NCBI GenBank assembly: GCA_965116665.1 | Contig: OZ220709.1 | Location: 1,940,062-2,004,061, forward strand | Reading direction: 5' to 3' | DNA length: 64,000 bases | DNA from: Acidimicrobiales bacterium | Lineage (GTDB): Bacteria; Actinomycetota; Acidimicrobiia; Acidimicrobiales; Aldehydirespiratoraceae | Shown here: one piece after another, positions 1-29,088 of the stretch | How positions within the stretch are numbered: position 1 is the first letter of the stretch | How the letters are laid out: each line of letters starts with the position of its first letter | Program-made: the position numbers and the translations under genes | The notes under the pieces: model-generated | Database searches by the model: none | Told to the model about the DNA's origin: nothing | The model's input: only the letters and a program-made list of their open reading frames with translations

Positions 1-272
1 AACTCGGCCACCGCGGACCGCCACTCTTTCTCGGCCTGAGTTGGCTCACGGCGGTTCTCGGCGCCTGTCTTGGCGATGTGGCAGCCCCGGCAGAGCACCT
101 GGAGGTTGGCCGGATCCCACGGGTCGCCACCCCGGCTCAGCGGCACCCGGTGATCAACCTCCAAGCGCCCGGAGCGTCCACACGCCTCGCAGCGCCACCC
201 TGCGGCCTCCAAGGCCCTCCGGCGTGTCCTGAGCCAGCGTGGGCCGCTCAGCGCCCGGTGACGGCGACTCAC
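1..272 (-). CDS. HNH endonuclease, phage-type (C-terminus runs off the left window edge)
   Basis: My own minus-strand translation from GTG at 272 reads VSRRHRALSGPRWLRTRRRALEAAGWRCEACGRSGRLEVDHRVPLSRGGDPWDPANLQVLCRGCHIAKTGAENRREPTQ... The pattern CxxC...DH...N...CxxCH is the HNH/zinc-ribbon signature. The start lies 5 nt after the terminase stop. The ORF track misses it because it is edge-truncated. Confidence 0.8.
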   Translation of the reverse strand, partial: MSRRHRALSGPRWLRTRRRALEAAGWRCEACGRSGRLEVDHRVPLSRGGDPWDPANLQVLCRGCHIAKTGAENRREPTQAEKEWRSAVAE

Positions 273-276
273 TGGC

Positions 277-1887
277 CTACCCGGCCAGCGCCGAGCGCAG
301 CGGACGGCGGGGCCGGTCCATCATCGGCTCCGCGAGGCCCGCGGCGATCACCGCAGCCGACAGCAAGTCGATACGGCCCCGGCTGGTGGCCTTGTCCAAC
401 GCCGGGTTGCCGTTGCTGTCGCGGCGCAGCGACGAGTTCGCCACCGCCGTCGCGAACGCCAACGATTCGCGCATCGCCAGCCTCCCGGTCAGCACAAGCC
501 GCTGAAGCGCCCGAACGTCCCTGGAGCCGTCCTTGCCCGCCCCGACCCGGCGGAACTCGTAGGGCCAGCGCAGCCCCGCCCGGTCCCGGAAGTCCTTGAT
601 CTCGGCGTCCTTGTAGCCGTCCGCCGCGAGGCGATGCACTCGACACCCCGACAGGTCCGCAGCCACATCACCCAGGAACGCCGCGACTGGCGTCACCCGG
701 CCGGGATAGGCGCGAAGCTCGCCCCGGTCGGCCATCACGTCATAGCGGGCGCCATCCCGGCGACCCCGCTCGACCAGCGACGGCACATCCCCGAACGCCA
801 GCCACGCCTCACAGCGACCCGACGCGGGCCAGATCGCGAACGCCGCCGTCGCGCTGGTGGCCTCGCCCATGTCCAGCCCGACAACCACCGGCCCCGACCG
901 CGCCGGCAGGTCCTCGACGATGCAACGCCGCCAGTCGCCCACAGTGAAGATCACCTCACGGGTCGGGGACTGCGGCAGGTTCAGATCGAACGCCAAGAAC
1001 GACGCCCGATCCGTCGGGGTGGCCTCCACCCGAGCCGCCTCGTCAGCCATGTAGGCCGCCGACTTGATCCCGACACCGAGGCCAGGGTTGCCCGCAGCCC
1101 ACACCGCCGGGTCGTGAATATCTACCTCCTCGCCGTCGGCGACCTTCGGGGCGTAGAGATGCACCGCCGTCGTCGAAAGCTCCCGCCGAGCGATCATCTC
1201 CTCCACCATCGGCGACTCGCCCCGAATCGTGATGGCGATGAACCGCCCGTCACGCGCCGACGTGGCCGAGCGCATCCCCGCCACCAGTTCCCGGTCCCGC
1301 TCGCCCATGAGCCCCAACTCGTCCACGACCACCACATCGAAGCCCGACGCGTGGCCCGCCGACTTATCCGCCGACAAGAACTCGGCGCTCGACCCCTCCG
1401 GGGTGCGGACCCAGCCCGGCGCCGGGCTCCGCAAGAACTCCAGCCCCTCCAGCCGCGACGCCTCGGCGATCTCGCGCATCTGGCGCAGCAACTCCGCCGC
1501 CTTCTCGCGGGTGACGGAGGCCGTCCCGATCCGCAGCCCCGGACGCCGCAACGGTCCCGCCAGCAGCCCCAACGCCAGCACCGCGCAGATCCCGGACTTG
1601 GAGTTCTTGCGGCCCATGCACAACAGGCTCTCGCGGTGGCGCAGCGCATCCCGCAGGAACGCCGCGCCGTAGTCCGGCAACGCCATCGGCCCACCCGCCA
1701 ACGGATGCCCCGCCGGGACCACCAACCGCTCAGCGCTCCACGCCGCCAGAGCCGCCGCCGGATCATCCGGCGCCACCACCGGCGCCACCGACTGCTCCGC
1801 AGCCCGACGCGCCCGCTGCCGCGCCCGATACCGGCGCGACCGCTCCCGAGACGCCAACCGAGCCGCCACCGGATCCTTGTACGGCAC
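277..1887 (-). CDS. phage terminase large subunit (TerL-like)
   Basis: 536-aa ORF. The ATPase half has CMGRKNSKSGICAVLAL (P-loop-like) and FDVVVVDELG (Walker B-like), followed by a nuclease-like C-terminal half. It sits between a rep-type gene and an HNH gene inside an int/xis element. The N-terminal ~35 aa are Arg-rich. Confidence 0.8.
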   Translation of the reverse strand: MPYKDPVAARLASRERSRRYRARQRARRAAEQSVAPVVAPDDPAAALAAWSAERLVVPAGHPLAGGPMALPDYGAAFLRDALRHRESLLCMGRKNSKSGICAVLALGLLAGPLRRPGLRIGTASVTREKAAELLRQMREIAEASRLEGLEFLRSPAPGWVRTPEGSSAEFLSADKSAGHASGFDVVVVDELGLMGERDRELVAGMRSATSARDGRFIAITIRGESPMVEEMIARRELSTTAVHLYAPKVADGEEVDIHDPAVWAAGNPGLGVGIKSAAYMADEAARVEATPTDRASFLAFDLNLPQSPTREVIFTVGDWRRCIVEDLPARSGPVVVGLDMGEATSATAAFAIWPASGRCEAWLAFGDVPSLVERGRRDGARYDVMADRGELRAYPGRVTPVAAFLGDVAADLSGCRVHRLAADGYKDAEIKDFRDRAGLRWPYEFRRVGAGKDGSRDVRALQRLVLTGRLAMRESLAFATAVANSSLRRDSNGNPALDKATSRGRIDLLSAAVIAAGLAEPMMDRPRRPLRSALAG

Positions 1888-1997
1888 CGCTACCCGTCAC
1901 CCCCAGCCCCGGGTGTGACGGCACCCGAAGGCCGACAGGTACCCCCGACGGCCGCGGCGCCCCTTCGACGGTCTGGCGGTGCCATACGTGGGCCTGC

Positions 1998-2243
1998 TCA
2001 GGCTCGGAGATGGTCTTCGGCGATGACGGCGATGATGTCGGCGGCGATGATCTTCGCTCCTTCGTCGCTGAGGCCAGCCACGGCCGTGATGGTCTTGGTG
2101 GGGTCGTGGGGGTCGAGGTTGGAGATGAGGATGCCAACGCCGAGTCGTTCGCCGGTTGGCGTCAACAGCGGGCAGATAATGGGCTCGCCGGGGGCTTGGC
2201 GGGCGAGTTCGTAGGCATTGGCTGGAGGTTGCGGGTTGCTCAT
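1998..2243 (-). CDS. hypothetical small protein (81 aa) of the phage-like element
   Basis: A strong RBS (AGGAG, 6 nt before the ATG at 2243), high GC3, and the same strand as its neighbours. I recognise no motif. Confidence 0.55.
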   Translation of the reverse strand: MSNPQPPANAYELARQAPGEPIICPLLTPTGERLGVGILISNLDPHDPTKTITAVAGLSDEGAKIIAADIIAVIAEDHLRA

Positions 2244-2270
2244 GGTGGTCTCCTTTGGTTGTGGTCGGAT

Positions 2271-2393
2271 GAGCCCGTCCCGAGCCCGTCCCGTGGGGTC
2301 GTCCCGGTTGATCGTCCCGCAGCCCGTCCCCCTAAGGGGTCGGACGGGCGGACGGTCCGTCCCGGACGGACGCGGACGGACTGGGACGGGCTC
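2271..2393. repeat. iteron-like array of CGTCC / GGACG motifs with dyad symmetry (candidate origin or operator array)
   Basis: CGTCCC occurs at 2276, 2287, 2300, 2313, 2325 and 2358 (11-13 bp phasing). GGACGG occurs at 2342, 2350, 2364, 2374 and 2384. There is a perfect tandem GAGCCCGTCCC x2 at 2271-2292. Its exact reverse complement GGGACGGGCTC lies at 2383-2393. The centre is CCCCTAAGGGG. Confidence 0.75.
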
Positions 2394-3576
2394 ATGGTTC
2401 GGGGTCGAGCGGCAGCATGGTGGAGGGGTCGAGCAGCTCGTAGATCTTCGCGTTGTTCGGGCCGTGCCTCATGCCGACTTCGCCGCGGCTGGTGAGATGC
2501 CGGAGCGCGGCGCGCACGTCTTGGGCGCGGGCTTCGAGGTTGTCGATGATCTGTTGGGTGTTGGCGGGGCCGTCGCGTTCGAGGAGCGCCCACACGCGGT
2601 CCACGATGGCGCTGGTGTGTTCGGGCGCGTCGGCGGGTGGCAGCACTTCGAGCCGGATGGTGCGGGTGTCCGCGTCGGGTGCGCCGGTGATCCGGGCGAC
2701 GGTCTGGCCGACTTGCCCGACGCCGCCTTCGCGGTCTTTGCGGACGACAGCAGCGAGGGTGCCGCTCTTGGTCGGGGTCCATGCGGCGCCGCGCAGTTCG
2801 ATGCTGGCGCCGGTGACCGTGGCGACCTTCTGGACGCTCCCGAGCGGGCTGGCGAGCCGGTCAGGGTCTCGGCGCTTCGGCAAATGATCCGCGACGGTCA
2901 CGCCGACCCCGGCGGCGGTGAGCGGGTCGATGAACGCGGCCCGCCACGCCATGAACGCCGCGGCGTCCTCGCCCGCGCCGGTGCTGCTGGCGGCGTCGAT
3001 GAACGCGTGGCCTCCGGTGGCCCACGCGGCGGCCGCGCGTTGGGCCTCGGGGCCTGCGAACCGCCAGTCGTCGGCGGCGACCCAGCGCACCAGGCCGCTG
3101 GCGGCGACATCGCCTCGGCCGAGGATGTGGAGCCGCTTGGCGAACACTCGCGGGCTGTCCTCGCCGTCGGCCCAGATCACGCGCCGGCCGTTGTCGATGA
3201 GGTCCGCGACCATCCACAGCATGATCCAGCTCTTGGCGAGGCCGGGGTGGGCTGCGAGCCAGTTCACCTTGCCCGAGTAGGCGATGCCGAGCAGGTCGGC
3301 GGTCTCGGGTTCGCGGTCTGGGTCGCCGGTCGTGTCCGCGCACGGGATCGCGAGCGGCCAGCCCTCGGCGTCGAGTAGGTGCTCCGGCTCGCCGGGGTCG
3401 GGGTCTGGTTGGGGCCACGGCTCCGGCTCCGCCTTGGAGTCACTGTCAGCGTCCATGTCCATGTCCGGCTCGATGCCTCGGGCGCGGAGTTCGTTCTCGA
3501 TCCATGCGGCGAGGCCGCCGTCGTCGAGCACCGCCACCGCGGTTGCGGCTGCGTCGTGGTCGGCTATCGTGGCCAT
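2392..3576 (-). CDS. RepA/AAA_25-like (RecA-fold) replication ATPase with C-terminal winged-helix domain
   Basis: Start chosen at ATG 3576 (AGGAG 5 nt upstream). The motif AYSGKVNWLAAHPGLAKSWIMLWM resembles a degenerate P-loop of plasmid/phage RepA-type proteins. The acidic linker is rich in D/E/P. The C-terminal ...QQIIDNLEARAQDVRAALRHLTSRGEV... looks wHTH-like. Confidence 0.65.
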   Translation of the reverse strand: MATIADHDAAATAVAVLDDGGLAAWIENELRARGIEPDMDMDADSDSKAEPEPWPQPDPDPGEPEHLLDAEGWPLAIPCADTTGDPDREPETADLLGIAYSGKVNWLAAHPGLAKSWIMLWMVADLIDNGRRVIWADGEDSPRVFAKRLHILGRGDVAASGLVRWVAADDWRFAGPEAQRAAAAWATGGHAFIDAASSTGAGEDAAAFMAWRAAFIDPLTAAGVGVTVADHLPKRRDPDRLASPLGSVQKVATVTGASIELRGAAWTPTKSGTLAAVVRKDREGGVGQVGQTVARITGAPDADTRTIRLEVLPPADAPEHTSAIVDRVWALLERDGPANTQQIIDNLEARAQDVRAALRHLTSRGEVGMRHGPNNAKIYELLDPSTMLPLDPEP

Positions 3577-3654
3577 GCGAACTCCTTTGTCCAAAGATGT
3601 CGTTCGCTTGGGGCCGCCCGGTGCGTAGATCGGGCGGCTCCGCTATTTCACGGG

Positions 3655-3846
3655 TCACGCCTGGGGCCGGTTGTCGATCCAGGCTTGGATGTCCTCGGCG
3701 GGCCAGCCGATCCGGTTCGGGCCGAGTCGGCGCGCCGGCGGGAATGCTCCCGACTCGCGCCAGCGGCTCAGCGTTGATCGGGCGATGCCAAGCCGTTCAG
3801 CCACTTGGGCAGGGCTCAGAACGCCGGCGGCCGCGGCTGCGGGCAT
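3655..3846 (-). CDS. xis: excisionase / AlpA-family HTH DNA-binding protein
   Basis: 63 aa. LSPAQVAERLGIARSTLSRWRESGAFPPARRLGPNRIGWPAEDIQAWI is the typical MerR-like excisionase fold signature. It lies directly downstream of int on the same strand. Confidence 0.8.
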   Translation of the reverse strand: MPAAAAAGVLSPAQVAERLGIARSTLSRWRESGAFPPARRLGPNRIGWPAEDIQAWIDNRPQA

Positions 3847-4001
3847 GGCAAGAACCTCCTAAATCGGGGAGGCGCTGTCACCGCCTATGTAGCTGGCGGC
3901 CCGCTGTCAGGGGTGTTCAAGTCATGCCATGCCGACAGCGCGGTTTGGTTGTGTGCCCAGCACCGTAGCGTCCGGGCCGCGATAGGGCGCGGATGGTCGC
4001 G

Positions 4002-5162
4002 TCAGGATGCGATGTACGCCGCCCAGGTGTCCATGAGCGAACGGCGACGGTCGAGCATGTCGCTTCGGGCGTAGGCCGCTTCGACGCCGCGCACGGCGTG
4101 GCCTAGCGCCGCCTCGGCGAGGTCTCTCGGCACGGCGGTGTCGCTGCACCACGACCGGAAGCTCGACCGGAACCCGTGGGCGGTGGCGTCGAGGTCGTGC
4201 TCTCTCAGGAGCTTGTTGTAGGTGGCGTCCGACACTGCCCGGCCGGTTGCGCTCGGGAGCGCGAGGCCCTGGCCGCCGTTGAGGCTGCGGGCCTGGTCGA
4301 GCACTTCCAGCGCCCGGCCCGACAGGGGCACCCGGTGGGAGGCGCCGGTCTTGGCGCGCGCGGCTGGGATCGTCCACACCGCGGCGTCGAGGTCGAACTC
4401 GGACCAGTCGGCGAAGCGGACCTCGCCGGGTCGGGTCGCTGTCAACGCGAGCAGCTCCAGCCCAAGACGGCACGCCGGGGTCGCCTCGGATGCCCGCACC
4501 CGGTTCAGCGCGTCGGCCACGTCGGTGTGGTGCAGGGCGCGGCGGTGCTCGACCTTGGCCCGGTGCTTGGGCATGGACGCCTTGGCCGCGGCGGTGGGGT
4601 CGGACTCGGCGAGGCCGCGGCCCATCGCCCACTGCATCGTCACGGAGATCCTGCGGACGGTGCGGCGGGCGAGTTCGGGACGGTCCCACACCCGGTCGAG
4701 CACGGCCACGATGTCGGCGGCTGTCACATCGGCGACCGGCTTGGGGCCGATGGTGGGCTCGATGTGGTGGGCGAGCAGAGACCGCCACTGCTGTTCGGTG
4801 TTGGACGTGGGCTTCCAGTTGGGGCGGTGCAGGTCGATCACGGCCGTCATGGCGTCCGCGAAGGTGACGGCGTGGCGGTGGCGGGGGTCGCGGCCCTCCT
4901 CGACGGCCTGGCGGTTCGCCAGCGCCCGCTCGCGGGCCAGTGCGAGACTGACGGCGGGGTAGCTGCCCAGGCCGAGGCTGGCCGTCCTGCCGCCGATGCG
5001 GAGGCGCTGTGCCCAAGTCTTGGACCATCGGCCGTTCGCGGTGGGCTTCACCAGTAGGCTCAGACCGTGCGAACCGCGGCCGTCGCCGTAGCGTCCGGGC
5101 CGGTTGATCGTGCGCACGAAGGCGGCTGTGAGCGTCTTCGGCCGGGCGGGACTCGAACTCAT
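4002..5162 (-). CDS. int: tyrosine recombinase, P4-type integrase
   Basis: An arm-binding N-terminus (LTAAFVRTINRPGRYGDGRGSHGLSLLVKPTANGRWSKTWAQRLRIGG), and a catalytic C-terminus with HGFRSSFRSW and LGHAVRGVEAAYARSD. The start was moved from 5267 to ATG 5162 because GGGG sits 5 nt upstream. Confidence 0.9.
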   Translation of the reverse strand: MSSSPARPKTLTAAFVRTINRPGRYGDGRGSHGLSLLVKPTANGRWSKTWAQRLRIGGRTASLGLGSYPAVSLALARERALANRQAVEEGRDPRHRHAVTFADAMTAVIDLHRPNWKPTSNTEQQWRSLLAHHIEPTIGPKPVADVTAADIVAVLDRVWDRPELARRTVRRISVTMQWAMGRGLAESDPTAAAKASMPKHRAKVEHRRALHHTDVADALNRVRASEATPACRLGLELLALTATRPGEVRFADWSEFDLDAAVWTIPAARAKTGASHRVPLSGRALEVLDQARSLNGGQGLALPSATGRAVSDATYNKLLREHDLDATAHGFRSSFRSWCSDTAVPRDLAEAALGHAVRGVEAAYARSDMLDRRRSLMDTWAAYIAS

Positions 5163-5209
5163 GGGTACCCCTTTCGTTACCACTTCACCGACAGGATCGG
5201 ATGGTACAC

Positions 5210-5228
5210 GGTAGGACAGGGTAGGACA
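5210..5228. repeat. two direct copies of GGTAGGACA, 10-bp register (candidate arm-type integrase sites)
   Basis: GGTAGGACA at 5210-5218 and 5220-5228, between the int start and the tRNA-like fragment. Confidence 0.4.
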
Positions 5229-5315
5229 ACCCGAACGGCAGAAAGTGGCCTCGAAGTGTCCATTCACCTCCAGTTATTGGCACCCGCCGGGGCAGAATGG
5301 GACATCATGGCGCAC

Positions 5316-5341
5316 GAGGGTTCGATGCTCTCTCCGGCACC
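5316..5341 (+). other. tRNA 3-prime-end-like fragment (T-arm + acceptor strand), candidate att core
   Basis: GAGGG-TTCGATG-CTCTC forms a 5-bp stem (one G-T pair) with a canonical GTTCGA-type T-loop, followed by 7 nt TCCGGCA plus C. No D-arm or anticodon arm can be folded upstream, so this is not an intact tRNA. Confidence 0.35.
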
Positions 5342-5511
5342 GATGTGATGTGTCAAGACATCGGAACCTTGTGAACCCACGCGTCGGTGTTTCGGTGGGA
5401 CTCCGATGGCGCCCAATCCGATCCAGAGTCGGTGCTGGCTACGGAGCCACTCGACGGTTGTCCGAGACCTCTGACTTGTAATCGCGTGCCTTCGTCTTGT
5501 AAAGTACTGGT

Positions 5512-5754
5512 GTGTCGATCGTTCGTCATCACGTCTCCCACCGGGGCCAAGTGGCGCTGCCCGCCGAGACCCGTCGCCGATGGAACATTGCCGACGGCGG
5601 ACCAGTCGAGATCGCTGATCTCGGCGCCGCCGTTCTGATCGTCCCCGCAGACGGCGACGGGCTGCGCGGCCTGCTCGCTGAGGCAATCGAGGAAGCGGGC
5701 GGATACGCGGCGCTCGCCGCCGGCGTCGCGGCCGAAGATCCCGACTTGGCATAA
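5512..5754 (+). CDS. AbrB/MazE/SpoVT-family antitoxin
   Basis: 80 aa with a GTG start. SHRGQVALPAETRRRWNI is the swapped-hairpin AbrB-type motif. It ends 6 nt before the next ORF. Possible -35 TTGTAA (5476) and -10 TAAAGT (5500) would give a near-leaderless transcript. Confidence 0.75.
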   Translation: MSIVRHHVSHRGQVALPAETRRRWNIADGGPVEIADLGAAVLIVPADGDGLRGLLAEAIEEAGGYAALAAGVAAEDPDLA

Positions 5755-5760
5755 GCGTCA

Positions 5761-6204
5761 GTGGGCGACACTGTTCTCGTCGATGACCACTTGCTGCTAA
5801 CAGTGCTGCTCGGCCGCGAGCCGGCGGACCTCCGACTCAGCGATGCCCGCATCGCGACGACGGGCCTGTGGTATCACCGATTGTGCCGGGCGTTGATCGA
5901 CTCGACGGTGGTCGGCTCCATGTCGCGCCGACTGTCCGGGCTCGCCCCTGCCGCCGCCTCAGCGGCAATTGCGTCGGTTGTGCGACTTCCAGCGGACATC
6001 GAGATGGTGTCGTTACGCACACTCGGGTGGCCGATGGCCGAACTGCCGTCAGGCGGGTTACGGCTGAACCTGCTGTCACTGGAGGCAATCGCCACCGCAC
6101 GCGTGATCGACGCCGAGATATGCCTCGCCCCCGTCGACCGTAACGAGGCATTAGTGGACGCCGCCCGCACACTCGGGGTGAGCGTGCGAACAATCGAGAC
6201 CTGA
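5761..6204 (+). CDS. divergent PIN-like protein, putative toxin partner of the AbrB antitoxin
   Basis: 147 aa with a GTG start. N-terminal VLVDDHLLL, mid LNLLSLEAIATA and C-terminal CLAPVDRNEAL line up with the PIN acidic-residue positions, but with E in place of one D and poor overall resemblance to canonical VapC. Confidence 0.5.
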   Translation: MGDTVLVDDHLLLTVLLGREPADLRLSDARIATTGLWYHRLCRALIDSTVVGSMSRRLSGLAPAAASAAIASVVRLPADIEMVSLRTLGWPMAELPSGGLRLNLLSLEAIATARVIDAEICLAPVDRNEALVDAARTLGVSVRTIET

Positions 6205-6301
6205 GCCCTTCCCGGCCCACAGCACCCAGCTGCGGACCCTCAGATCACGCCCGATACACAAAACTCCTGGCAGGCCCGTGGGTGGCCGCGGCTCTGGAAA
6301 C

Positions 6302-6334
6302 ATCAGAGCATCATCTGATAGAGATGTTATGATG
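6302..6334. promoter_or_regulatory. nested palindromes upstream of vapB (candidate VapB operator / promoter)
   Basis: ATCAGA(6302)-N6-TCTGAT(6314) and CATCAT(6309)-N14-ATGATG(6329), in an AT-richer stretch that ends 5 nt before the vapB ATG. TATGAT is a possible -10. Confidence 0.4.
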
Positions 6335-6339
6335 TCTAC

Positions 6340-6597
6340 ATGCGAACAACGTTGACTCTCGACGATGACTTGGCCGCGGCCCTCAAGGAACAGGCCCGGC
6401 GCGCCGATCAGCCGTTCAAGCAGGTCGTCAACGACACCCTGAGGCGAGGTCTGTCCCCGGCACTCGCACAGTCGGAGTCCGGCTACCGGGTCACGCCCCA
6501 CGACAGCGGCTTCAGGCCCGGCGTCGATCCTTTGCGGCTGAACCAGCTCAACGACTCGATCGAGGCTGCCGACTTCGCGGGCTCGCCGCCGCTGTGA
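6340..6597 (+). CDS. vapB: VapB-type antitoxin (ribbon-helix-helix)
   Basis: MRTTLTLDDDLAAALKEQARR is the typical actinobacterial VapB N-terminus. It overlaps vapC by 4 nt. Confidence 0.8.
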   Translation: MRTTLTLDDDLAAALKEQARRADQPFKQVVNDTLRRGLSPALAQSESGYRVTPHDSGFRPGVDPLRLNQLNDSIEAADFAGSPPL

Positions 6598-7019
6598 TCG
6601 TCCCGGACCTGAACCTGCTCGTCTACGCCCACAGCGCCGGCGCGCTGCTGCACGAGCCGGCGCGCCACTGGTGGGAAGATCTCGTGAACGGAACCGAGCG
6701 CGTGGGTGTTCCGTGGCTTGTGGCGGCAGGGTTCGTGCGGCTGCTCACTCACCCCAGCGTTCTGAGCACCCCGGCGGCTCCCGAGCACGCCGTTGACCTC
6801 ATGGCCCAATGGTTTCGCTCACCCAGCGTCACACCGTTGAACCCAGGCACTCAGCACATCGCCATCTTCCGCCGCATGCTGGCCGCCGCCGGCGTAGCGG
6901 GGAACCTCGTCACCGACGCCCACATCGCCGCGCTGGCCATCGAGCACCAAGCCGAGGTTCACTCCAACGACCGCGACTTCGCCCGCTTCCCGGGGCTGCG
7001 CTGGCGCAACCCGCTCTAG
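6594..7019 (+). CDS. vapC: VapC PIN-domain toxin
   Basis: IVPDLNLLVYA ... LVTDAHIAALAIEHQAEVHSNDRDFARF shows the canonical PIN acidic motifs. Confidence 0.85.
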   Translation: MIVPDLNLLVYAHSAGALLHEPARHWWEDLVNGTERVGVPWLVAAGFVRLLTHPSVLSTPAAPEHAVDLMAQWFRSPSVTPLNPGTQHIAIFRRMLAAAGVAGNLVTDAHIAALAIEHQAEVHSNDRDFARFPGLRWRNPL

Positions 7020-7243
7020 CCTCGCACAGTCCCATGGACTCGGATCGTGGCTAGCGCGTTTGCGTTCGAGGAGGGCGCTAGAGGCTCCTGCGGTGTGCTC
7101 AGGTGACGATGCTGTCGAGGACGCCGTCGGCGATCTGAGTGCACAGCGCGTCGCCGGTTCAGACGTCGTGGGTTGAGCGCACCACGGCGTCGTCCCAGCA
7201 GCGGCCGGTAGCGGCCGACCTGCTGGGACCGTCTAGAGGCTTC

Positions 7244-8110
7244 TCAGGCCTCTACGCCTGGTACTGGCCGGTTCGGCGAAGGCCCGTCGGGGATGTGGAG
7301 GTCGGGGTGTGTGGCTGTGTAGTCGTTAAGGGCGTGTTGTGCGGCGTCCGTGACGGTGTCGAGCATGGCGGCGAAGTCTTGGTGTGGGTGTTGGATCATG
7401 CCTGTTCGGGTGATCTCGGTCCATCTTTCGGCGAGTTCTGCTTCGTGTTGGTATGCGTTGTCGAACAGGATGTCGAACCAGTCGTGGCCTGCTGTGGCGG
7501 GGTGTGCGGCTTGGTGGCGTGCGGTGAACTCGTCGAGGGCCGCGTTGGTGTCTATCGAGGGGTCTTGGAGGAGGCGGTTCAGGTCGTAGTAGTCGCGTGG
7601 GGCGAGCCGGTAGGGGTTCGCGATGCAGTCGAGTTTCGCTGCCAACATCGAAGCCGGCGAGTATCCCAAGATGGGGTTGGCGGTGTCGATGTGTGGGTAT
7701 CTGTCCAGGATTGTCCAGTGCGCAGCGGTGGGCCCGGCACCGGGGTGGTGGCGGGGTTTGACGTCGGCGTAGATGACGCCGGTTGTGGCGTTGGGCAGCT
7801 CCCAGTAGATGTTCAGCTTGTTGGCGCCCCATTTCGTGTCGAACGCGGTCTGGTGAGTCCTCGACGCCGCGTTGAGAACTCCGTCGAAGAAGTCCTGTAT
7901 GGCTGGTCTGGTGTCGACGGGGTGGATCCAGTCGAAGTCCAGGTCCTCTGAGAACCGCCAGTCGCGCCGGTAGCAGACCCGAAGCAGGGTCCCGCCTTTG
8001 AACATCACCCGTGGGACGCTTTGTTGGCGCGCCGCGACCGCGGAGACTATGTGGTGCTGGACCAGGTCGACGGGCTCCCATCTGTTATGCCGACTGGTCG
8101 GAGTGCTCAT
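7244..8110 (-). CDS. abiEii: AbiEii/DUF1814-type nucleotidyltransferase toxin
   Basis: FKGGTLLRVCYRRDWRFSEDLDFDW is the hallmark motif. The start was set at ATG 8110, which overlaps the upstream gene's stop as ATGA. The longer track ORF (to 8737) is an out-of-frame extension across abiEi. Confidence 0.85.
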   Translation of the reverse strand: MSTPTSRHNRWEPVDLVQHHIVSAVAARQQSVPRVMFKGGTLLRVCYRRDWRFSEDLDFDWIHPVDTRPAIQDFFDGVLNAASRTHQTAFDTKWGANKLNIYWELPNATTGVIYADVKPRHHPGAGPTAAHWTILDRYPHIDTANPILGYSPASMLAAKLDCIANPYRLAPRDYYDLNRLLQDPSIDTNAALDEFTARHQAAHPATAGHDWFDILFDNAYQHEAELAERWTEITRTGMIQHPHQDFAAMLDTVTDAAQHALNDYTATHPDLHIPDGPSPNRPVPGVEA

Positions 8111-8958
8111 GTCGAGACCACAGAAGCGACAGCGTCGGGGACCGCCGCCCAGTTGACTTTGCGGGCCGTGTCCCGGTATGCGACACGGGGCGGGCTGCCG
8201 GCGCGGCGCAGCGGCGCGAGGTGTATCCAGTCGTCGCCGCGAACCGCGGCGGAGCTCAGTTCGGCCCACCGGTGGTCGATGTCGAACCCCAGACTCTGCC
8301 CTGTCGAGAACTCGGCGAGGCCCTGCGCCAACGACGAGATCCGCCGCAGGCCGGCGCGCCAGCCCAAAGCGCCCGCAACCTCGGCGACCTCGGCTGGCGA
8401 GCACACCTCGAAGCGGTAGGCCAGCATGCGGCCCAGATACTCCTCCCATCGGTGTGCGCGGTGCGGCCAGTGGGCGCACTCCAGCACCGCCCGAGCGGGC
8501 GTCGACACCGATGTGCGCTCCGTCAGCTGCACCGCGCCCACCAGCAGCGATTCGGGGTTCTCGCGATATGACACGAACCCGAACGGATCGGTGTCGAACG
8601 CGACGCCGCCGGCCACGCTGACCTCCGGCCGGCAGATCAACGCCACCCCCGCCATCCCCAAAGCGGTCAGCCCCGAGATCCGGCGAACAGCGCAGCCGTA
8701 GGCCGCCTCCAGCTCCGCCTCCCACTGCGGAGTCCAATGATGCGAAACAGAGCCAGGGCCGACCAACAGTTCAGCTGCCGACGGCAATGAGACACCGAAG
8801 TTGCGCCATGTCCCCCGGCGGATCTTCTCCACCCGCCCCACGGCCGCCAACTCGCCCAGCGCCCGCGACGCCGAAGACGGACGCACCCCAGCCGCCCGCT
8901 CGAACTCCTGCGTCGAGAACACCGGCGCCAGACTCCCCAATACTTCGACAGATCCCAT
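8107..8958 (-). CDS. abiEi: AbiEi-type antitoxin / transcriptional regulator
   Basis: 283 aa with an N-terminal wHTH-like FSTQEFERAAGVRPSSASRALGELAAVGRVEKIRRGTW. It is translationally coupled (ATGA) to abiEii. Size and order match the AbiE type IV TA layout. Confidence 0.75.
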   Translation of the reverse strand: MGSVEVLGSLAPVFSTQEFERAAGVRPSSASRALGELAAVGRVEKIRRGTWRNFGVSLPSAAELLVGPGSVSHHWTPQWEAELEAAYGCAVRRISGLTALGMAGVALICRPEVSVAGGVAFDTDPFGFVSYRENPESLLVGAVQLTERTSVSTPARAVLECAHWPHRAHRWEEYLGRMLAYRFEVCSPAEVAEVAGALGWRAGLRRISSLAQGLAEFSTGQSLGFDIDHRWAELSSAAVRGDDWIHLAPLRRAGSPPRVAYRDTARKVNWAAVPDAVASVVST

Positions 8959-8960
8959 AC

Positions 8961-8994
8961 GAGAAGTATACCCGAGCCGATATGAGAAATATAC
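8961..8994. promoter_or_regulatory. direct repeats GAGAA(G/A)TATAC x2 abutting the abiEi start (candidate AbiEi operator)
   Basis: GAGAAGTATAC at 8961-8971 and GAGAAATATAC at 8984-8994, offset by 23 bp, in an AT-richer segment. The proximal copy is 3 nt from the ATG. Confidence 0.4.
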
Positions 8995-9036
8995 AATACG
9001 GCCGCTCGATCCCGCACCGCCGCCAACCCAGGGGAG

Positions 9037-9198
9037 TCAACGGCCAGCGGAGGGCCGGTTGCCGAGCCACTCATCGATGATGTGACGAGGCCAGCCGATG
9101 GTGTTCGCGCCCCTGGGGAACGTGCCGTCGGAGCGCCAGCGACGCAGCGTCCGGCAGCTGCCGCAGATGCAGTCAAGCACATCAGGCACTCGCAACAT
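9037..9198 (-). CDS. AlpA/excisionase-like HTH protein, orphan (53 aa)
   Basis: MLRVPDVLDCICGSCRTLRRWRSDGTFPRGANTIGWPRHIIDEWLGNRP parallels the Xis at 3655-3846 (RWR..G.FP....IGWP..I..W..NRP). No integrase lies next to it. Confidence 0.55.
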   Translation of the reverse strand: MLRVPDVLDCICGSCRTLRRWRSDGTFPRGANTIGWPRHIIDEWLGNRPSAGR

Positions 9199-9244
9199 GG
9201 CATTCGCACAGGGGCTGACGGCTGGAGGCCTCCCACTGAGGCTC

Positions 9245-9304
9245 AACCGCCAAGTCCATGCCGGCGGGTCCGCTGCCGATGATGGCCACACGGGTGTCGG
9301 GCAT
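9245..9304 (-). pseudogene. 5-prime stump of an FAD/NAD(P)-dependent oxidoreductase
   Basis: The minus strand from ATG 9304 reads MPDTRVAIIGSGPAGM..., a textbook GxGxxG dinucleotide-binding N-terminus. Family-like sequence then stops and the frame ends at 9182. Confidence 0.55.
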
Positions 9305-9505
9305 GCGTTCGGCTCCGCGGGTTCTTGGATCGGCTGGTCGTCGAGGCGGGCGACAATCCCGCCGCCTGCCAGACGGCGACGAGAGTATTGACTTTCGGAC
9401 GCTAACTGGTCCGTTCAGTGAGCGTGCAGGCCGGTCGGGGCTTGCTGCCCCAACCGGATCGCCATCCGGCCAGGGTCCCGACCGACGGCACCTAGACTGG
9501 GCCTC

Positions 9506-9793
9506 ATGTCCCGGGACCGGATCGAGCGCCGTCTGCGGGGAATCGGGCGGCAGTTGAGCGCCCTGCGGACCGATCTGCGCGTCTGCGAGGAGCAACTGCT
9601 GCAGGTCAGCGACGAGGCCGACGAGAGCCGCCTGCGAGCGCTGGTGTCCGAGACGCCGATCGCGGAGCGCGAGTACCGGGAGACCAGCCGGCACGCCGAG
9701 CGGCTGCGGCGCCACCGTGACGAGATCGCGGAGCGGATCGCCCGCCTCGAAGCCGATCAGGACGCCCTGCTGGATCGGTTCAGCGCGTCGTGA
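9506..9793 (+). CDS. small coiled-coil protein (95 aa), hypothetical
   Basis: Heptad-like, charged sequence (RLRGIGRQLSALRTDLRVCEEQLLQV...RIARLEADQDALLDRF). The stop overlaps the pdtaR GTG as GTGA. Confidence 0.5.
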   Translation: MSRDRIERRLRGIGRQLSALRTDLRVCEEQLLQVSDEADESRLRALVSETPIAEREYRETSRHAERLRRHRDEIAERIARLEADQDALLDRFSAS

Positions 9794-10383
9794 GCGCTGG
9801 CCCGGGGGACGCGGTCCGGGTGGTGGTGGCCGAGGACGAGTCCATCATCCGGCTCGACCTGGTCGAGACCCTGCGCGAGGAGGGCTACGACGTGGTGGCC
9901 GACACCGGCCGGGGCGACGAGGCGGTGGGGCTGGTGGCCGAGCACCGTCCCGACGTGGCCATCCTCGATGTGAAGATGCCGGGTCTCGACGGGATCGAGG
10001 CCACCCGCCGGATCGCGCCGCAGCGGGGAACGGCCGTGGTGATCCTCACCGCCTTCAGCCAGCGCGAGCTGATCGAGCAGGCACGTGAGGCCGGAGCCAT
10101 GACCTATCTCGTGAAGCCGTACCGGCGCGACGCCCTGGTACCCGCCGTAGAGCTCGCCCTGGCCCGCTTCAGAGAGATGGAGGCACTCGAAGGCCAGGTC
10201 GGTGACCTCGAGGGCCGCTTGGAGGTGCGCAAGCTCCTCGATCGGGCCAAGGGACGGCTCATCGACAGCCACGGGATGAGCGAGCAGGACGCCTACGTGT
10301 TCATCCAGCGCACCGCCATGTCGCAGCGCCGCACCATGCAGGCAGTGGCCGACGACGTGCTCGAGGACCGCCTCGCCCCGTGA
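9790..10383 (+). CDS. pdtaR: ANTAR-domain response regulator
   Basis: A receiver domain (VVVAEDESIIRLDL...DVAILDVKMPGLDG) plus ANTAR (KGRLIDSHGMSEQDAYVFIQRTAMSQRRTMQAVADDV). Its position upstream of polA matches mycobacterial pdtaR. Confidence 0.85.
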   Translation: MSAGPGDAVRVVVAEDESIIRLDLVETLREEGYDVVADTGRGDEAVGLVAEHRPDVAILDVKMPGLDGIEATRRIAPQRGTAVVILTAFSQRELIEQAREAGAMTYLVKPYRRDALVPAVELALARFREMEALEGQVGDLEGRLEVRKLLDRAKGRLIDSHGMSEQDAYVFIQRTAMSQRRTMQAVADDVLEDRLAP

Positions 10384-10416
10384 CTCACCGGCGCCGCTTG
10401 CCGTAGATTCTCCGCC

Positions 10417-13128
10417 ATGCGCTCGAAGGTGATGCTGATCGACGGCAACTCGCTGGCCTACCGGGCCTTCTTCGCCCTGCCGACCGACATGGCCACCGCC
10501 TCGGGCCAGATCACCAACGCGGTCTTCGGTTTCACGTCGATGCTGATCAACCTGTGGCGCGACCACCAGCCCGACCAGGTCGTGGTGGCCTTCGACCGCC
10601 CCGAGCCGACCTTCAGGCACGAGATGGTCCCCACCTACAAGGGGACCCGCGACTCCGCGCCCGACATCCTGCGCCAGCAGATGGGCCTGGTCCGGGAAGT
10701 CCTGGAGGCCCTGGCCGTGCCCACCGTCGACGCCCCCGGCTTCGAAGCCGACGACGTGATCGCCACCCTGGCCACCGAGGGCCGCGACGCCGGCGACGAC
10801 GTGATCGTGGTAACCGGCGACCGCGACACCTACCAGCTGGTGGAGGACCCCTCAGTGAGGGTGCTCTACAACCTGCGGGGAGTGTCCGACTACAAGCTGT
10901 ACGACGAGGCCGGCATTCTGGCCCGCACCGGCGTGACGCCCGCCGACTACGTGCAGTACGCGGCTCTGAGGGGCGACAACAGCGACAACCTTCCCGGCGT
11001 GCCCGGGGTGGGGGAGAAGACCGCGGCCAAGCTGATCAACACCAGGGGCGGCCTCGACGGCATCTTCGCCTCACTCGACGAGCTCACGCCCAAACTGCGG
11101 GAGAACCTCGCGGCCGCTGAGGAGCAGGTCCGCACCAACGCGGAGGTCATGCTGCTGGTGCGCGACGTGCCGCTGGAGGCCCGGCTCGACGATCTCACCC
11201 TCGGAGAGGTGGACGCCCAGGCGGTGCGCAAGCTGTTCGACTTCCTGGAGTTCCGCTCGCTGCACGCCCGGCTGGCCGAGGCTCTGGGTGACTCGCTCGG
11301 CGAAGACGCCGCCGGCGCAGACCCGTCGACGAGGGTGCTCTCGCCGGACGTCCTGGTGCTGGAGACGCCCGCGGCGGCGGCCGAGGCCCTGCGAGCTGCG
11401 GCCGCACAGGGTGCATCGGCCCCGCCCCTGGCGCTGACCGCTCCGGCCGGGGGACTCGCCGGTGGTCTGGCCTGGGTGGTCGGCGGGGCTGCCGGCCGGG
11501 TGGCCTTCATCTCCGGCCCGCTCCTCGACGATGCCGACGTGTCAGCTGCGCTCGCCGGTCTCCTGTCCGGGCCCGCCGGCCGCGCCGACCGCAGCTCGAG
11601 CCGTCCGCTGGCCGTTCACGGGGCCAAGACCTTGATGCGCCCGCTGCTGGACCGCGGCATCGACATGCGCGACCCGCTGATCGACACCATGCTGGCGGCC
11701 TACCTGCTCGACCCGGCCGACGCCCGCTACGACCTCAGCGACCTGGCCGGCCGCTATGCCGGCATCGACCCGCCCTCCCACGCCCCCCAGGAGGGTCGGC
11801 TGGACCTCGACGGCGACTCCATCGAACCCCACGATCAGGCCGGATGGGCCGCGCTGGCCATCGACCGCCTGGTCATGCCGCTGCGGGAGGCGCTGGCCGC
11901 GCAGGGTCTGGAGAGCCTCAACGACGAGGTGGAGGTGCCGCTGGTGCGGGTACTGGCCCGCATGGAGCACATCGGCATCGCGGTGGACCGCCCGGTCCTG
12001 GAGGGAATCCGCGACGAACTCGACACCGAGGCCGAGGAACTTCGCCACCAGGTGCTGGCCGACGCGGGGCGGCCCATCAACGTCAACTCGCCCAAGCAGC
12101 TGGCCGAGGTCCTATTCGAAGACCTCGGTCTCACACCGGTCAAGCGCACCAAGACCGGCTTCTCCACCGACGCCCAGTCCCTCGAGAAGCTCCGGGGCGA
12201 GCATCCCATCGTCGACCATCTGCTCGGCTACCGCGAGGTGGAGAAACTGCGCTCCACCTACGGGGTCGGCCTGCTGGCCGAGATCGGCCCCGACGAGCGC
12301 ATCCGGGCCACCTTCAACCAGACCGTGGCCCGCACCGGCCGGCTCAGCTCCGACGCTCCCAACCTCCACAACATCCCGGTGCGGTCCGAGCGCGGCCGGG
12401 TGTTCCGCACCGCGTTCGTGGCTCCCGCCGGCTGCAAGCTGCTGGTCGCCGACTACGACCAGATCGAGCTCCGGTGCATCGCCCACCTGGCCGAGGATCC
12501 CGGACTGATCGCGGCGTTCGAGGCCGGCGACGACATCCACACCGCCACCGCCGCCCGGGTGTTCGACGTCGACCCCTCAGAAGTCGGTGTGGAGAAGCGG
12601 TCCACCGCCAAGATGGTGTCCTACGGCCTGGCCTACGGGATGGAGGCCTACGGCCTGGCCCAACGCCTCAACATCGCCACCGGCGAGGCCGCCGAGATCC
12701 TCGACGCCTACTTCGAGGCGTTCCCCTCGGTGCGCCAGTACATGGACCGCACCGTGGCCGAGGCTCGCAGCAAGGGCTACACCGAGACCCTGTTCGGGCG
12801 GCGCAGGCAGATCCCCGAGCTGGCCAGTTCCAACGTGCGGCTGCGCCAGGCCGGCGAGCGCCAGGCGATGAACGCGGGCATCCAGGGGCTGGCCGCCGAC
12901 ATCTTCAAGGTTGCGCTGGTGCGGCTGCACCGGGCCCTGGAGGACCGGGCGCTGGAGTCCCGCATCGTGCTGCAGGTCCACGACGAGATCATCCTGGAAG
13001 CTCCCGACGCCGAGATCGAACCGGCGTCGGAGCTGACCCGGGAGGTGATGCGGGGCGCCTTCGAGCTGCGGGTGCCCCTGGAGGTCGACCTCCAGGTGGC
13101 GGCCACCTGGGCCGGCGCCAAGGGCTAG
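10417..13128 (+). CDS. polA: DNA polymerase I
   Basis: 903 aa. It has a 5-prime nuclease N-terminus (LIDGNSLAYRAFFAL) and Pol A motifs (LVADYDQIELR, RSTAKMVSYGLAYG, QVHDEIILE). Confidence 0.97.
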   Translation: MRSKVMLIDGNSLAYRAFFALPTDMATASGQITNAVFGFTSMLINLWRDHQPDQVVVAFDRPEPTFRHEMVPTYKGTRDSAPDILRQQMGLVREVLEALAVPTVDAPGFEADDVIATLATEGRDAGDDVIVVTGDRDTYQLVEDPSVRVLYNLRGVSDYKLYDEAGILARTGVTPADYVQYAALRGDNSDNLPGVPGVGEKTAAKLINTRGGLDGIFASLDELTPKLRENLAAAEEQVRTNAEVMLLVRDVPLEARLDDLTLGEVDAQAVRKLFDFLEFRSLHARLAEALGDSLGEDAAGADPSTRVLSPDVLVLETPAAAAEALRAAAAQGASAPPLALTAPAGGLAGGLAWVVGGAAGRVAFISGPLLDDADVSAALAGLLSGPAGRADRSSSRPLAVHGAKTLMRPLLDRGIDMRDPLIDTMLAAYLLDPADARYDLSDLAGRYAGIDPPSHAPQEGRLDLDGDSIEPHDQAGWAALAIDRLVMPLREALAAQGLESLNDEVEVPLVRVLARMEHIGIAVDRPVLEGIRDELDTEAEELRHQVLADAGRPINVNSPKQLAEVLFEDLGLTPVKRTKTGFSTDAQSLEKLRGEHPIVDHLLGYREVEKLRSTYGVGLLAEIGPDERIRATFNQTVARTGRLSSDAPNLHNIPVRSERGRVFRTAFVAPAGCKLLVADYDQIELRCIAHLAEDPGLIAAFEAGDDIHTATAARVFDVDPSEVGVEKRSTAKMVSYGLAYGMEAYGLAQRLNIATGEAAEILDAYFEAFPSVRQYMDRTVAEARSKGYTETLFGRRRQIPELASSNVRLRQAGERQAMNAGIQGLAADIFKVALVRLHRALEDRALESRIVLQVHDEIILEAPDAEIEPASELTREVMRGAFELRVPLEVDLQVAATWAGAKG

Positions 13129-28937: not shown

Positions 28938-29088
28938 GCCCGGCCCCTCCCGTCCCCGAACTGGCAGCCCAGAACACCCGAACCGGCACCCTCCACTGCC
29001 AATCCGCTACCTCCGCTGGCCGGGGACTGCTCGGGCCGCGGGGGACGGGGAATAGGCTGCTGCGGAGCGCTACCGACGGAGGTGCCCG

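Follow-up and report, generated by a model that had tools for sequence, protein, structure and literature searches.

A 123-bp array of short repeats at positions 2271-2393 of the DNA analysed here is probably the replication origin of a ~10.2-kb capsid-encoding, satellite-like island integrated at a tRNA-Leu gene of an Acidimicrobiales bacterium. The DNA, called the window in the following, comprises 64,000 nucleotides (GenBank assembly GCA_965116665.1, contig OZ220709.1, positions 1,940,062 to 2,004,061). All genes of the island are on the minus strand. In the direction of transcription their order is int (integrase), AlpA/Xis, rep, the array, an open reading frame (ORF) of 81 aa, the large terminase gene (TerL), an HNH gene, capsid, prohead protease and genes for proteins of 104, 138 and 372 aa. 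The repeats share the core CGTCC/GGACG and directly follow rep, which codes for a 394-aa Rep-like ATPase, here termed Rep. By sequence comparison the array would be a Rep-bound iteron origin of the type of the staphylococcal pathogenicity islands (SaPIs) or of the Streptomyces plasmid pWTY27. No other window of the genome has such an array. Beside rep homologues the place and the architecture of the array are conserved, independent of the genes which follow downstream. At the C-terminus of Rep a winged helix is predicted by structure modelling. From these data we infer binding by Rep, loading of Rep oligomers, a melting site and replication itself.

Architecture and uniqueness of the repeat array

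The array contains 12 CGTCC/GGACG cores with the consensus GCCCGTCC(C). By motif search CGTCCC was located on the plus strand at 2276, 2287, 2300, 2313, 2325 and 2358; GGACGG was read from the sequence at 2342, 2350, 2364, 2374 and 2384. These are all positions already listed in a first-pass annotation of the window, and they were correct throughout. A repeat finder also verified its description of the ends and the middle. The array opens with a perfect tandem of two GAGCCCGTCCC units (2271-2292) and closes with the exact reverse complement GGGACGGGCTC (2383-2393), the last repeat sharing two bases with the TGA stop codon of rep (2392-2394, minus strand). The centre is the 11-bp sequence CCCCTAAGGGG (2329-2339). 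The outer arms reach 13 nt, are perfect, and are 101 nt apart with repeated units within.

The rep-distal iteron block (2271..2330, plus strand) consists of the five CGTCCC copies at 2276, 2287, 2300, 2313 and 2325, with spacings of 11, 13, 13 and 12 bp, i.e. about one helical turn. The rep-proximal block (2342..2393, minus strand) has five copies in one orientation on the rep strand plus the copy of opposite orientation at 2358. With spacings of 8, 14, 10 and 10 bp it is the more compact arm. Thus, the helical-turn phasing of 11-13 bp which had been annotated holds for the rep-distal arm (2276-2325) and does not extend to the rep-proximal arm. Because of the different spacings and the one inverted copy the two arms are not mirror images. 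The inverted copy creates a small palindrome, GTCCGTCC/GGACGGAC, in the rep-proximal block. A larger palindrome, GCCCGTCC-CCCTAAGGGGTC-GGACGGGC, occupies the centre (2322..2349); in it two iterons converge around CCCC-TAA-GGGG. A spacer of lower GC content (2244..2270, minus strand, 47-52% GC) separates the array from the 81-aa ORF and carries an AAAGGAG ribosome-binding site. The ATG of this ORF is at 2243 and the gap is 27 bp, not 28 bp as initially given. The spacer is among the ten least stable 20-bp windows in the island part of the window.

A chance or simple-repeat origin of the array was rejected. In the window, which has a GC content of ~69%, 7 of 55 CGTCCC copies sit inside the 123 bp. 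On average 123 bp of the 3.9-Mb genome contain 0.43 copies of the core 5-mer; the array contains 12 (Poisson P = 5e-14; ~2e-7 after multiplication by all windows) and is the top-scoring CGTCC/GGACG window of the genome. The runner-up windows rich in CGTCC are no dyad arrays; they consist of (CCGT)n(CCGA)n microsatellites and of a coding tandem repeat of 15 bp. Two such compound tetranucleotide microsatellites, with (CCGT)n followed by (CCGA)n, were noticed at unrelated sites of the same genome (G000:C1:2370827-2370910 and G000:C1:1144765-1144845, outside the window); both may be slippage-prone tracts. No second iteron cluster is present elsewhere in the island. On this ground a second site resembling crr of phage P4 and an operator at the rep promoter were rejected as well. 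Far from the island, at 28949-29049 of the window, an inverted pair of CCCGTCCC with a distance of 93 bp was noticed, which is probably a chance occurrence or a hairpin.

A strong hairpin is predicted for the array, with -89.1 kcal/mol for the RNA of the minus strand (z = -5.1 compared to shuffled sequences) and z = -3.7 for the DNA. Might the array be a transcription element only? It could then be a GC-rich hairpin which ends or attenuates the int-xis-rep transcript, or a multi-site operator which gates read-through into the late operon. The location exactly between an early gene and the late operon would suit such a role, and actinobacterial terminators often lack U-tracts. However, scanning 1800-4000 for promoter and terminator consensus sequences uncovered nothing terminator-like or promoter-like and no T-run after the hairpin, and positions 1900-2700 had no match in Rfam. 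Moreover, a hairpin requires no internal direct repeats, whereas here a unit of 5-9 nt recurs 9-12 times, in one arm with helical-turn phasing. Owing to the asymmetric spacing of the arms the fold needs many bulges. A function in transcription alone is unlikely, also in view of the comparative data below; as a second function alongside an origin it could exist.

Conservation in close relatives

A search among 5.8 billion proteins returned four good homologues of Rep only, all on metagenomic contigs (L009-L012). They are 61-73% identical to Rep of this island; among all five proteins identities are 55-86%. The order in these sister elements is int / AlpA / rep / spacer / small ORFs / TerL / capsid and so on. 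The first-pass annotation had proposed to look for comparable arrays beside homologous rep genes. They are present in all four sister elements in the same position, and, as reported below, beside most of the distant homologues. The spacer between rep and the next gene has 143-160 bp (148 bp in this island) and contains 9-11 CGTCC/GGACG cores; elsewhere in the respective locus 150 bp hold 0.5-0.75 cores.

Starting from the rep stop codon, the five arrays have a common architecture: a forward block of 3-5 units, one inverted unit, 1-2 more forward units, the centre, and a reverse block in which the units are spaced by 11-16 bp. In all five the inverted unit yields a small palindrome, CGTCC(C)GGACG, and the central palindrome reads CCGTCC-n-CCCC-N3-5-GGGG-n-GGACGG. 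What differs are the flanks of the core, which are GCCCGTCC in this island and in L009, (T)GGTCGTCCC in L011 and L012, and GACCTCGTCCC or CACGTCGTCCC in L010. The spacers of this island and of L009 are 82% identical, compared to 70% at third codon positions of rep, which speaks for selection on the non-coding DNA.

The array is located 27 bp upstream of the 81-aa ORF/TerL/HNH operon, and the order of rep, array, small ORFs and TerL is kept in L010-L012 and, with HNH added after TerL, in the distant element L013 described below. Hence the question whether the array is a packaging site (cos/pac). The repeats would then bind a small terminase (TerS), for example the 81-aa protein, or TerL/HNH, in the manner of the cosB R-sites beside terS. 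As no TerS was recognisable, an unusual recognition system is conceivable. Yet the five elements differ in the first small ORFs behind the array, which share no homology (all-against-all BLASTP and direct pairwise test). They are unrelated in this island and L009 in spite of the similar spacers, and also in L011 and L012, of which the arrays are 87% and the Reps 86% identical. Similarly, TerL of this island is of another lineage. Its identity to the TerLs of L010-L012 is 30-37%, mainly in the C-terminal nuclease part, whereas those are 57-85% identical to each other; the CGTCC core is unchanged nevertheless. Thus, the array persists across the replacement of genes which a cos/pac site would have to match. 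In addition, other conserved non-coding candidates for packaging or promoter sites exist, GTATGGCACCGCC before TerL and CATCCGGCCAC-N6-TGCAACCTCGGTGGC before the capsid gene. Finally, a TraB plasmid that lacks a terminase and a replication module with WhiB, SNF2 and methylase genes have similar arrays behind the ATPase gene. A packaging site is thus quite unlikely.

The Rep protein and its predicted winged helix

Rep (2392..3576, minus strand) has an acidic N-terminal region, a P-loop core (AAA_25) and the predicted C-terminal winged helix. AlphaFold2 was run on a five-sequence alignment. The mean predicted local distance difference test (pLDDT) score of the entire protein was 54.5, with poor values outside the ATPase core and the C-terminal domain. 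In the ATPase core it was ~70-83 (residues ~120-190) and lower beyond; the best Foldseek matches of the core were KaiC and Twinkle, i.e. rings of the RecA/DnaB-type. Residues 320-385, the putative iteron reader (codons at 2422..2619, minus strand), were modelled with a pLDDT of 81-93. The predicted topology, H-H-H-strand-strand, is that of a winged helix, and Foldseek retrieved the winged-helix proteins 1sfx and 4lb5 (Z-alpha domain). A sequence search of the PDB with a Rep profile gave only marginal matches to RAD51 paralogues and winged-helix proteins.

Like the CGTCC core of the arrays, the predicted third helix of this domain, RAQDVRAALRHL, is common to the five close relatives; L010 and L011 each deviate in it by a single conservative substitution. 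The wing reads EVGMRHGPNNAKIYEL in this island and L009, EVGVRTGPKNAR(L/C)YSL in L011 and L012, and EVAMRNGPRGARLYSI in L010. These are exactly the groups formed by the iteron flanks (GCCCGTCC, GGTCGTCC and CCTCGTCCC, respectively). Overall Rep identity would group differently: Rep of L009 is nearer to that of L011 (82%) than to that of this island (71%). With five sequences in three groups, the correspondence of wing and flank fits a specificity module made up of the C-terminal domain and the iterons.

A ring ATPase with a C-terminal winged helix and repeats beside its own gene is not confined to replication. Streptomyces TraB recognises 8-bp repeats close to its own gene by means of a C-terminal winged helix (PMC3583192). 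By the same logic the ATPase encoded here could be a segregation motor or a DNA translocase, with the repeats as its clt- or parS-like site. We consider a transfer or partition site very improbable. The ATPase core is RecA/KaiC/Twinkle-like (AAA_25) and neither FtsK-like nor ParA-like, distant homologues possess a DnaB N-terminal domain, and the Streptomyces plasmid which bears an array has a separate TraB of the FtsK/SpoIIIE type.

Arrays beside distant homologues

Searches of 400 genomes each from the order and from the phylum detected Rep homologues in a single genome of the same order, G309. A search of genome contigs added one Dehalococcoidia locus (L013), and searches of viral and metagenome contigs no further relatives. 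Rep itself had no match in the phage or plasmid collections (plasmids at E 1e-6); a homologue with a DnaB_N domain as a query reached both. In an exhaustive profile search the remote family turned out to be large, its representatives numbering 3424 at E<=1e-3, ~1100 at E<=1e-10 and 58 at E<=1e-30. Seven distant homologues, with identities of 25-31% or less, were examined. In five of them the stop codon is directly followed by a strong dyad array built of other units, one has a weak array (L013) and one has none (Kineococcus pKRAD02).

The proteins of the three G309 loci (L006, L007 and L008) and of the Dehalococcoidia locus are 25-31% identical to Rep. In L006 a dyad array of CTGGGGGCC units directly follows the stop codon. 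In L007 and L008 the units are GGTGGGTCCC, again directly after the stop codon, and the layout of blocks, inverted copy and central palindrome is as in this island. L013 is from a metagenome-assembled genome of the Chloroflexota (OZ245439.1, locus 4384-11541). Its genes are syntenic with those of the island described here: int, rep, array, two small ORFs, TerL, HNH and head genes. The units in L013, which here too begin directly after the stop codon, are CCGTTCCC around a 12-bp AT-rich centre, AATACTAATAAA; this locus of lower GC content is the only one with an AT-rich centre.

Other homologues are from a replication module, a plasmid and a phage. In L015 and L016 the gene, coding for a protein with DnaB_N and AAA_25 domains, is part of a replication module with WhiB, an SNF2 helicase and a DNA methylase. 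L018 is a 7.9-kb plasmid of Streptomyces griseoaurantiacus. Here, an AAA_25 ATPase gene is followed at once by an array of ACCTGCCC, about nine (A/G)CCTGCCC units with the centre CCCC-TCTA-GGGG and inverted copies. The plasmid carries TraB (FtsK/SpoIIIE) and DUF2637 and no terminase. L019 is the record MZ923504.1, 'Microcystis phage MinS1', in which a DnaB_N + AAA_25 gene is followed by ACCTCGTCCC iterons in the layout of this island and with the same CGTCCC core. In the same record two small hypothetical coding sequences (CDSs) are annotated over the putative ACCTCGTCCC array (73-491). A high GC content together with a gene of the Lsr2 family, as seen in this part of the genome, is unusual for a cyanophage.

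The inverted copy within the rep-proximal block is kept in L009-L012, L007, L008 and L019. The CCCC-N3-5-GGGG type of centre is kept in L009-L012, with analogous centres in L007, L008, L018 and L019. In a uniform test the best 7-mer count in the 220 bp after the stop codon was compared to all other windows of the respective locus. In 10 of 12 loci the post-stop 220 bp were the most repeat-dense window.

Taken together, the array follows rep homologues whatever lies downstream. This comparative evidence favours an iteron origin served by the adjacent rep gene, as proposed in the first-pass annotation. The unit changes between lineages while the architecture stays, and the array groups with the winged-helix variant of Rep. 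This argues for recognition by a protein and against a mere hairpin, and, jointly with the predicted winged helix, backs the origin further. The other initial proposal, a multi-site operator for late or packaging genes, fits poorly with the plasmid and replication-module contexts which have no packaging operon. It is not needed to explain the array, yet an extra regulatory or insulating role between early and late genes is possible.

Comparison with known origins and a model of initiation

The closest functional model for the array, by analogy, is the SaPI origin. SaPI origins are located downstream of rep and consist of opposed penta- or hexanucleotide iterons, some of them inverted in the set, which are bound by the C-terminal winged helix of Rep (bioRxiv 10.64898/2026.10.17.759575). 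The likeness to the SaPIs and related phage-inducible chromosomal islands (PICIs; SaPI1, SaPIbov1, SaPI5, with Rep/PriRep self-loading helicases) covers several features. In an island of the order int / regulator / rep the origin directly follows rep. The iterons, of 5-7 bp, form two opposed sets, here five CGTCCC versus five GGACGG plus one inverted copy. The SaPI initiator is a ring helicase which reads the iterons by a C-terminal winged helix; for Rep a ring-type ATPase core and such a domain are predicted. There are also differences. SaPI origins span ~300 bp with a long AT-rich centre, whereas the array has ~120 bp, a GC content of 71-80% and a CCCC-TAA-GGGG centre. SaPI Reps belong to helicase superfamily (SF) 3 or are MCM-like (SF6), whereas Rep is RecA/KaiC/DnaB-like (AAA_25). 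A primase gene was not seen here, and a sequence relation is not detectable.

Anatomically and in host range pWTY27 is the closest model; it is set beside the array by description and not by homology of RepA. Its origin has 5+5 copies of a 7-8-bp repeat on opposite strands, forming a discontinuous inverted repeat of ~105 bp. It is footprinted by RepA and required for replication (PMC3583192). As in this island, the direct repeats of the two strands together make up a long discontinuous inverted repeat beside rep in a high-GC actinobacterial host. In pWTY27, however, the iteron region (321-620) is upstream of repA (621-2198), has AT-rich parts and is used with a RepB primase/polymerase partner. 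pFP1 and pFP11 are named with pWTY27 among the Streptomyces theta-plasmid rep/iteron loci.

A looser analogue is the alpha protein of phage P4 with ori and crr. Alpha is a helicase-type initiator of a satellite, and its C-terminal winged helix binds short iterons in both orientations. It differs as a fusion of primase and SF3 helicase which needs a second site, crr, at a distance of ~4.5 kb; the island has no second iteron cluster.

On these analogies initiation may proceed as follows. The iterons with their CGTCC core would be recognised by the C-terminal winged helix of the protein encoded immediately upstream. Rep would act as a self-loading initiator helicase, a ring ATPase of the RecA/DnaB-type (AAA_25). 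Each of the opposed iteron sets might recruit one Rep oligomer, resulting in a head-to-head double ring. Opening of the DNA could begin at the central palindrome or in the lower-GC spacer 2244-2270. Host primase and polymerase would then replicate the excised circle bidirectionally.

Several points weigh against an origin. The GC content is 71-80% throughout the array; it contains no AT-rich unwinding element, and the centre has three A/T pairs only. The DNA melting analysis suggested in the first-pass annotation thus gave a GC-rich array, the nearest stretch of low stability being the flank 2244-2270. In six loci the array is upstream of a packaging operon, where it may have a role. L013 has a short and weak array only, and in pKRAD02 no array follows the gene of an 891-aa ATPase. 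The island has no recognisable primase gene. The correspondence of wing and flank could be explained by physical linkage, as the 3' end of rep adjoins the array. The AAA_25 match of Rep is below threshold (22.1 bits; Pfam cut-off 27). Lastly, Walker A of Rep is AHPGLAKS (residues 109-116, window 3229-3252), whereas the four close homologues have a G before the K. Is Rep dead? The AKS form recurs in 8 of 97 family representatives; therefore, Walker A alone does not indicate a dead Rep. A dead Rep was not supported and the variant, judging from its recurrence, is probably tolerated.

Compared to known iteron origins beside genes for self-loading helicases, the class of the helicase and the GC-rich design without AT-rich DNA would be new. 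Much less probable than the origin itself, and rather unlikely than likely, is the broader proposal that we are dealing with an undescribed replicon class which crosses phyla. It would combine an SF4-like, self-loading AAA_25 helicase carrying a C-terminal winged helix with a compact GC-rich iteron dyad devoid of an AT-rich unwinding element, opened perhaps by extrusion or distortion of the central palindrome. It would be common to capsid-encoding satellite-like islands of Actinomycetota and Chloroflexota, replication modules of temperate phages and small conjugative Streptomyces plasmids.

If the array is an origin, a site of ~150 bp and its initiator are at hand for an uncharacterised family of satellite-like islands. 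The SaPI logic, i.e. a helicase gene followed by opposed iterons which are read by its own winged helix, would extend to another helicase superfamily. An origin without AT-rich region would also pose the testable question of how such GC-rich DNA opens. The natural iteron and wing variants (GCCCGTCC, GGTCGTCC, CCTCGTCCC, GGTGGGTCCC, CTGGGGGCC and ACCTGCCC) are a ready set for specificity swaps; in particular the wings EVGMRHGPNNAKIYEL and EVGVRTGPKNARLYSL and the flanks GCCCGTCC and GGTCGTCC are pairs of exchangeable variants. The rep + array cassette might be used as a compact replicon for actinobacterial vectors. The pattern is also an aid in annotation: at least one phage record has hypothetical CDSs over such an array, an error which is avoided when the pattern is known.

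The island and its genes

The right boundary of the island (att) is a degenerate copy of the 3'-end of tRNA-Leu (5316..5342, plus strand), just beyond int. The intact tRNA-Leu(caa) is ~10.2 kb to the left, at 13087-13173 of L003, the stretch of the same genome left of the window. These two sites delimit the tRNA-integrated island of ~10.2 kb with head and packaging genes. The tyrosine integrase (4002..5162, minus strand) has arm-binding, central and catalytic domains and an ATG at 5162 with a ribosome-binding site. An AlpA/Xis-type helix-turn-helix protein is encoded at 3655..3846 (minus strand). Beyond rep and the array follow the 81-aa ORF (1998..2243, minus strand), with its strong AAAGGAG ribosome-binding site, no family match and no homologue in the sister elements, and TerL (277..1887, minus strand; phrog_9 with E 1e-54; TerL_nuclease). 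The HNH endonuclease gene (3..272, minus strand) extends past the left end of the window; the full gene is at 17991-18272 of L003. Left of the window are a Phage_capsid protein of 430 aa and an S78 prohead protease of 312 aa, then the 104-, 138- and 372-aa proteins.

NCBIfam had no match for Rep, the 81-aa protein or TerL, and the 104-, 138- and 372-aa proteins, like the 81-aa protein, had no family matches at all. A fold model of the 372-aa protein attained a pLDDT of 35.5. Tail or lysis families were not matched within the 10.2 kb, in which several proteins are without family match. TerS, a portal protein and a head-tail connector were not identified in the island by family searches.

In gene content the island resembles the capsid-forming PICIs (cf-PICIs; prototype EcCIEDL933). 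Both are small integrated islands with int, an AlpA-type regulator, rep, HNH, TerL, capsid and prohead protease. In the island described here no genes for tail or lysis were recognised. The order of small ORF / TerL / HNH / capsid / protease differs from the published orders, capsid...hnh-terS-terL or hnh-terS-terL first. Further differences are the TerS, portal and connector genes not identified here, another family of Rep, the lack of a known helper phage, and the hosts, Actinomycetota and Chloroflexota. Very few phage satellites have been described in high-GC Gram-positive bacteria and Chloroflexota, and this capsid-encoding, satellite-like island family, present in at least two phyla, is apparently undescribed.

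Between array and TerL each element has one or two small ORFs without relation to those of the others; this is true even of L011 and L012 with their similar Reps. This slot looks like a hypervariable accessory position and not like a conserved TerS. The island is also mosaic. TerL is 30-37% identical to the sister TerLs as against 61-73% for Rep and 46-86% for the capsid-module proteins, which points to a terminase replacement.

Two non-coding motifs outside the array were noted. (C)GTATGGCACCGCC, at 1975-1988 of the window (minus strand) in the gap between the 81-aa ORF and TerL, is found shortly before TerL in L011, L012 and this island. L010 carries its shorter core, TGGCACCGCC; thus, the motif is present in four elements. 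The small ORFs in front of it have no relation to each other, and TerL of this island belongs to another lineage. The motif is a candidate signal for packaging or for a promoter. The spacer between HNH and capsid has ~298 bp in this island versus ~40 bp in L011 and L012. The second motif, CATCCGGCCAC-N6-TGCAACCTCGGTGGC (L003 17741-17780, minus strand), is ~50 bp upstream of the capsid gene. L011 and L012 share it with this island; it is a candidate for a cos site or for a late promoter.

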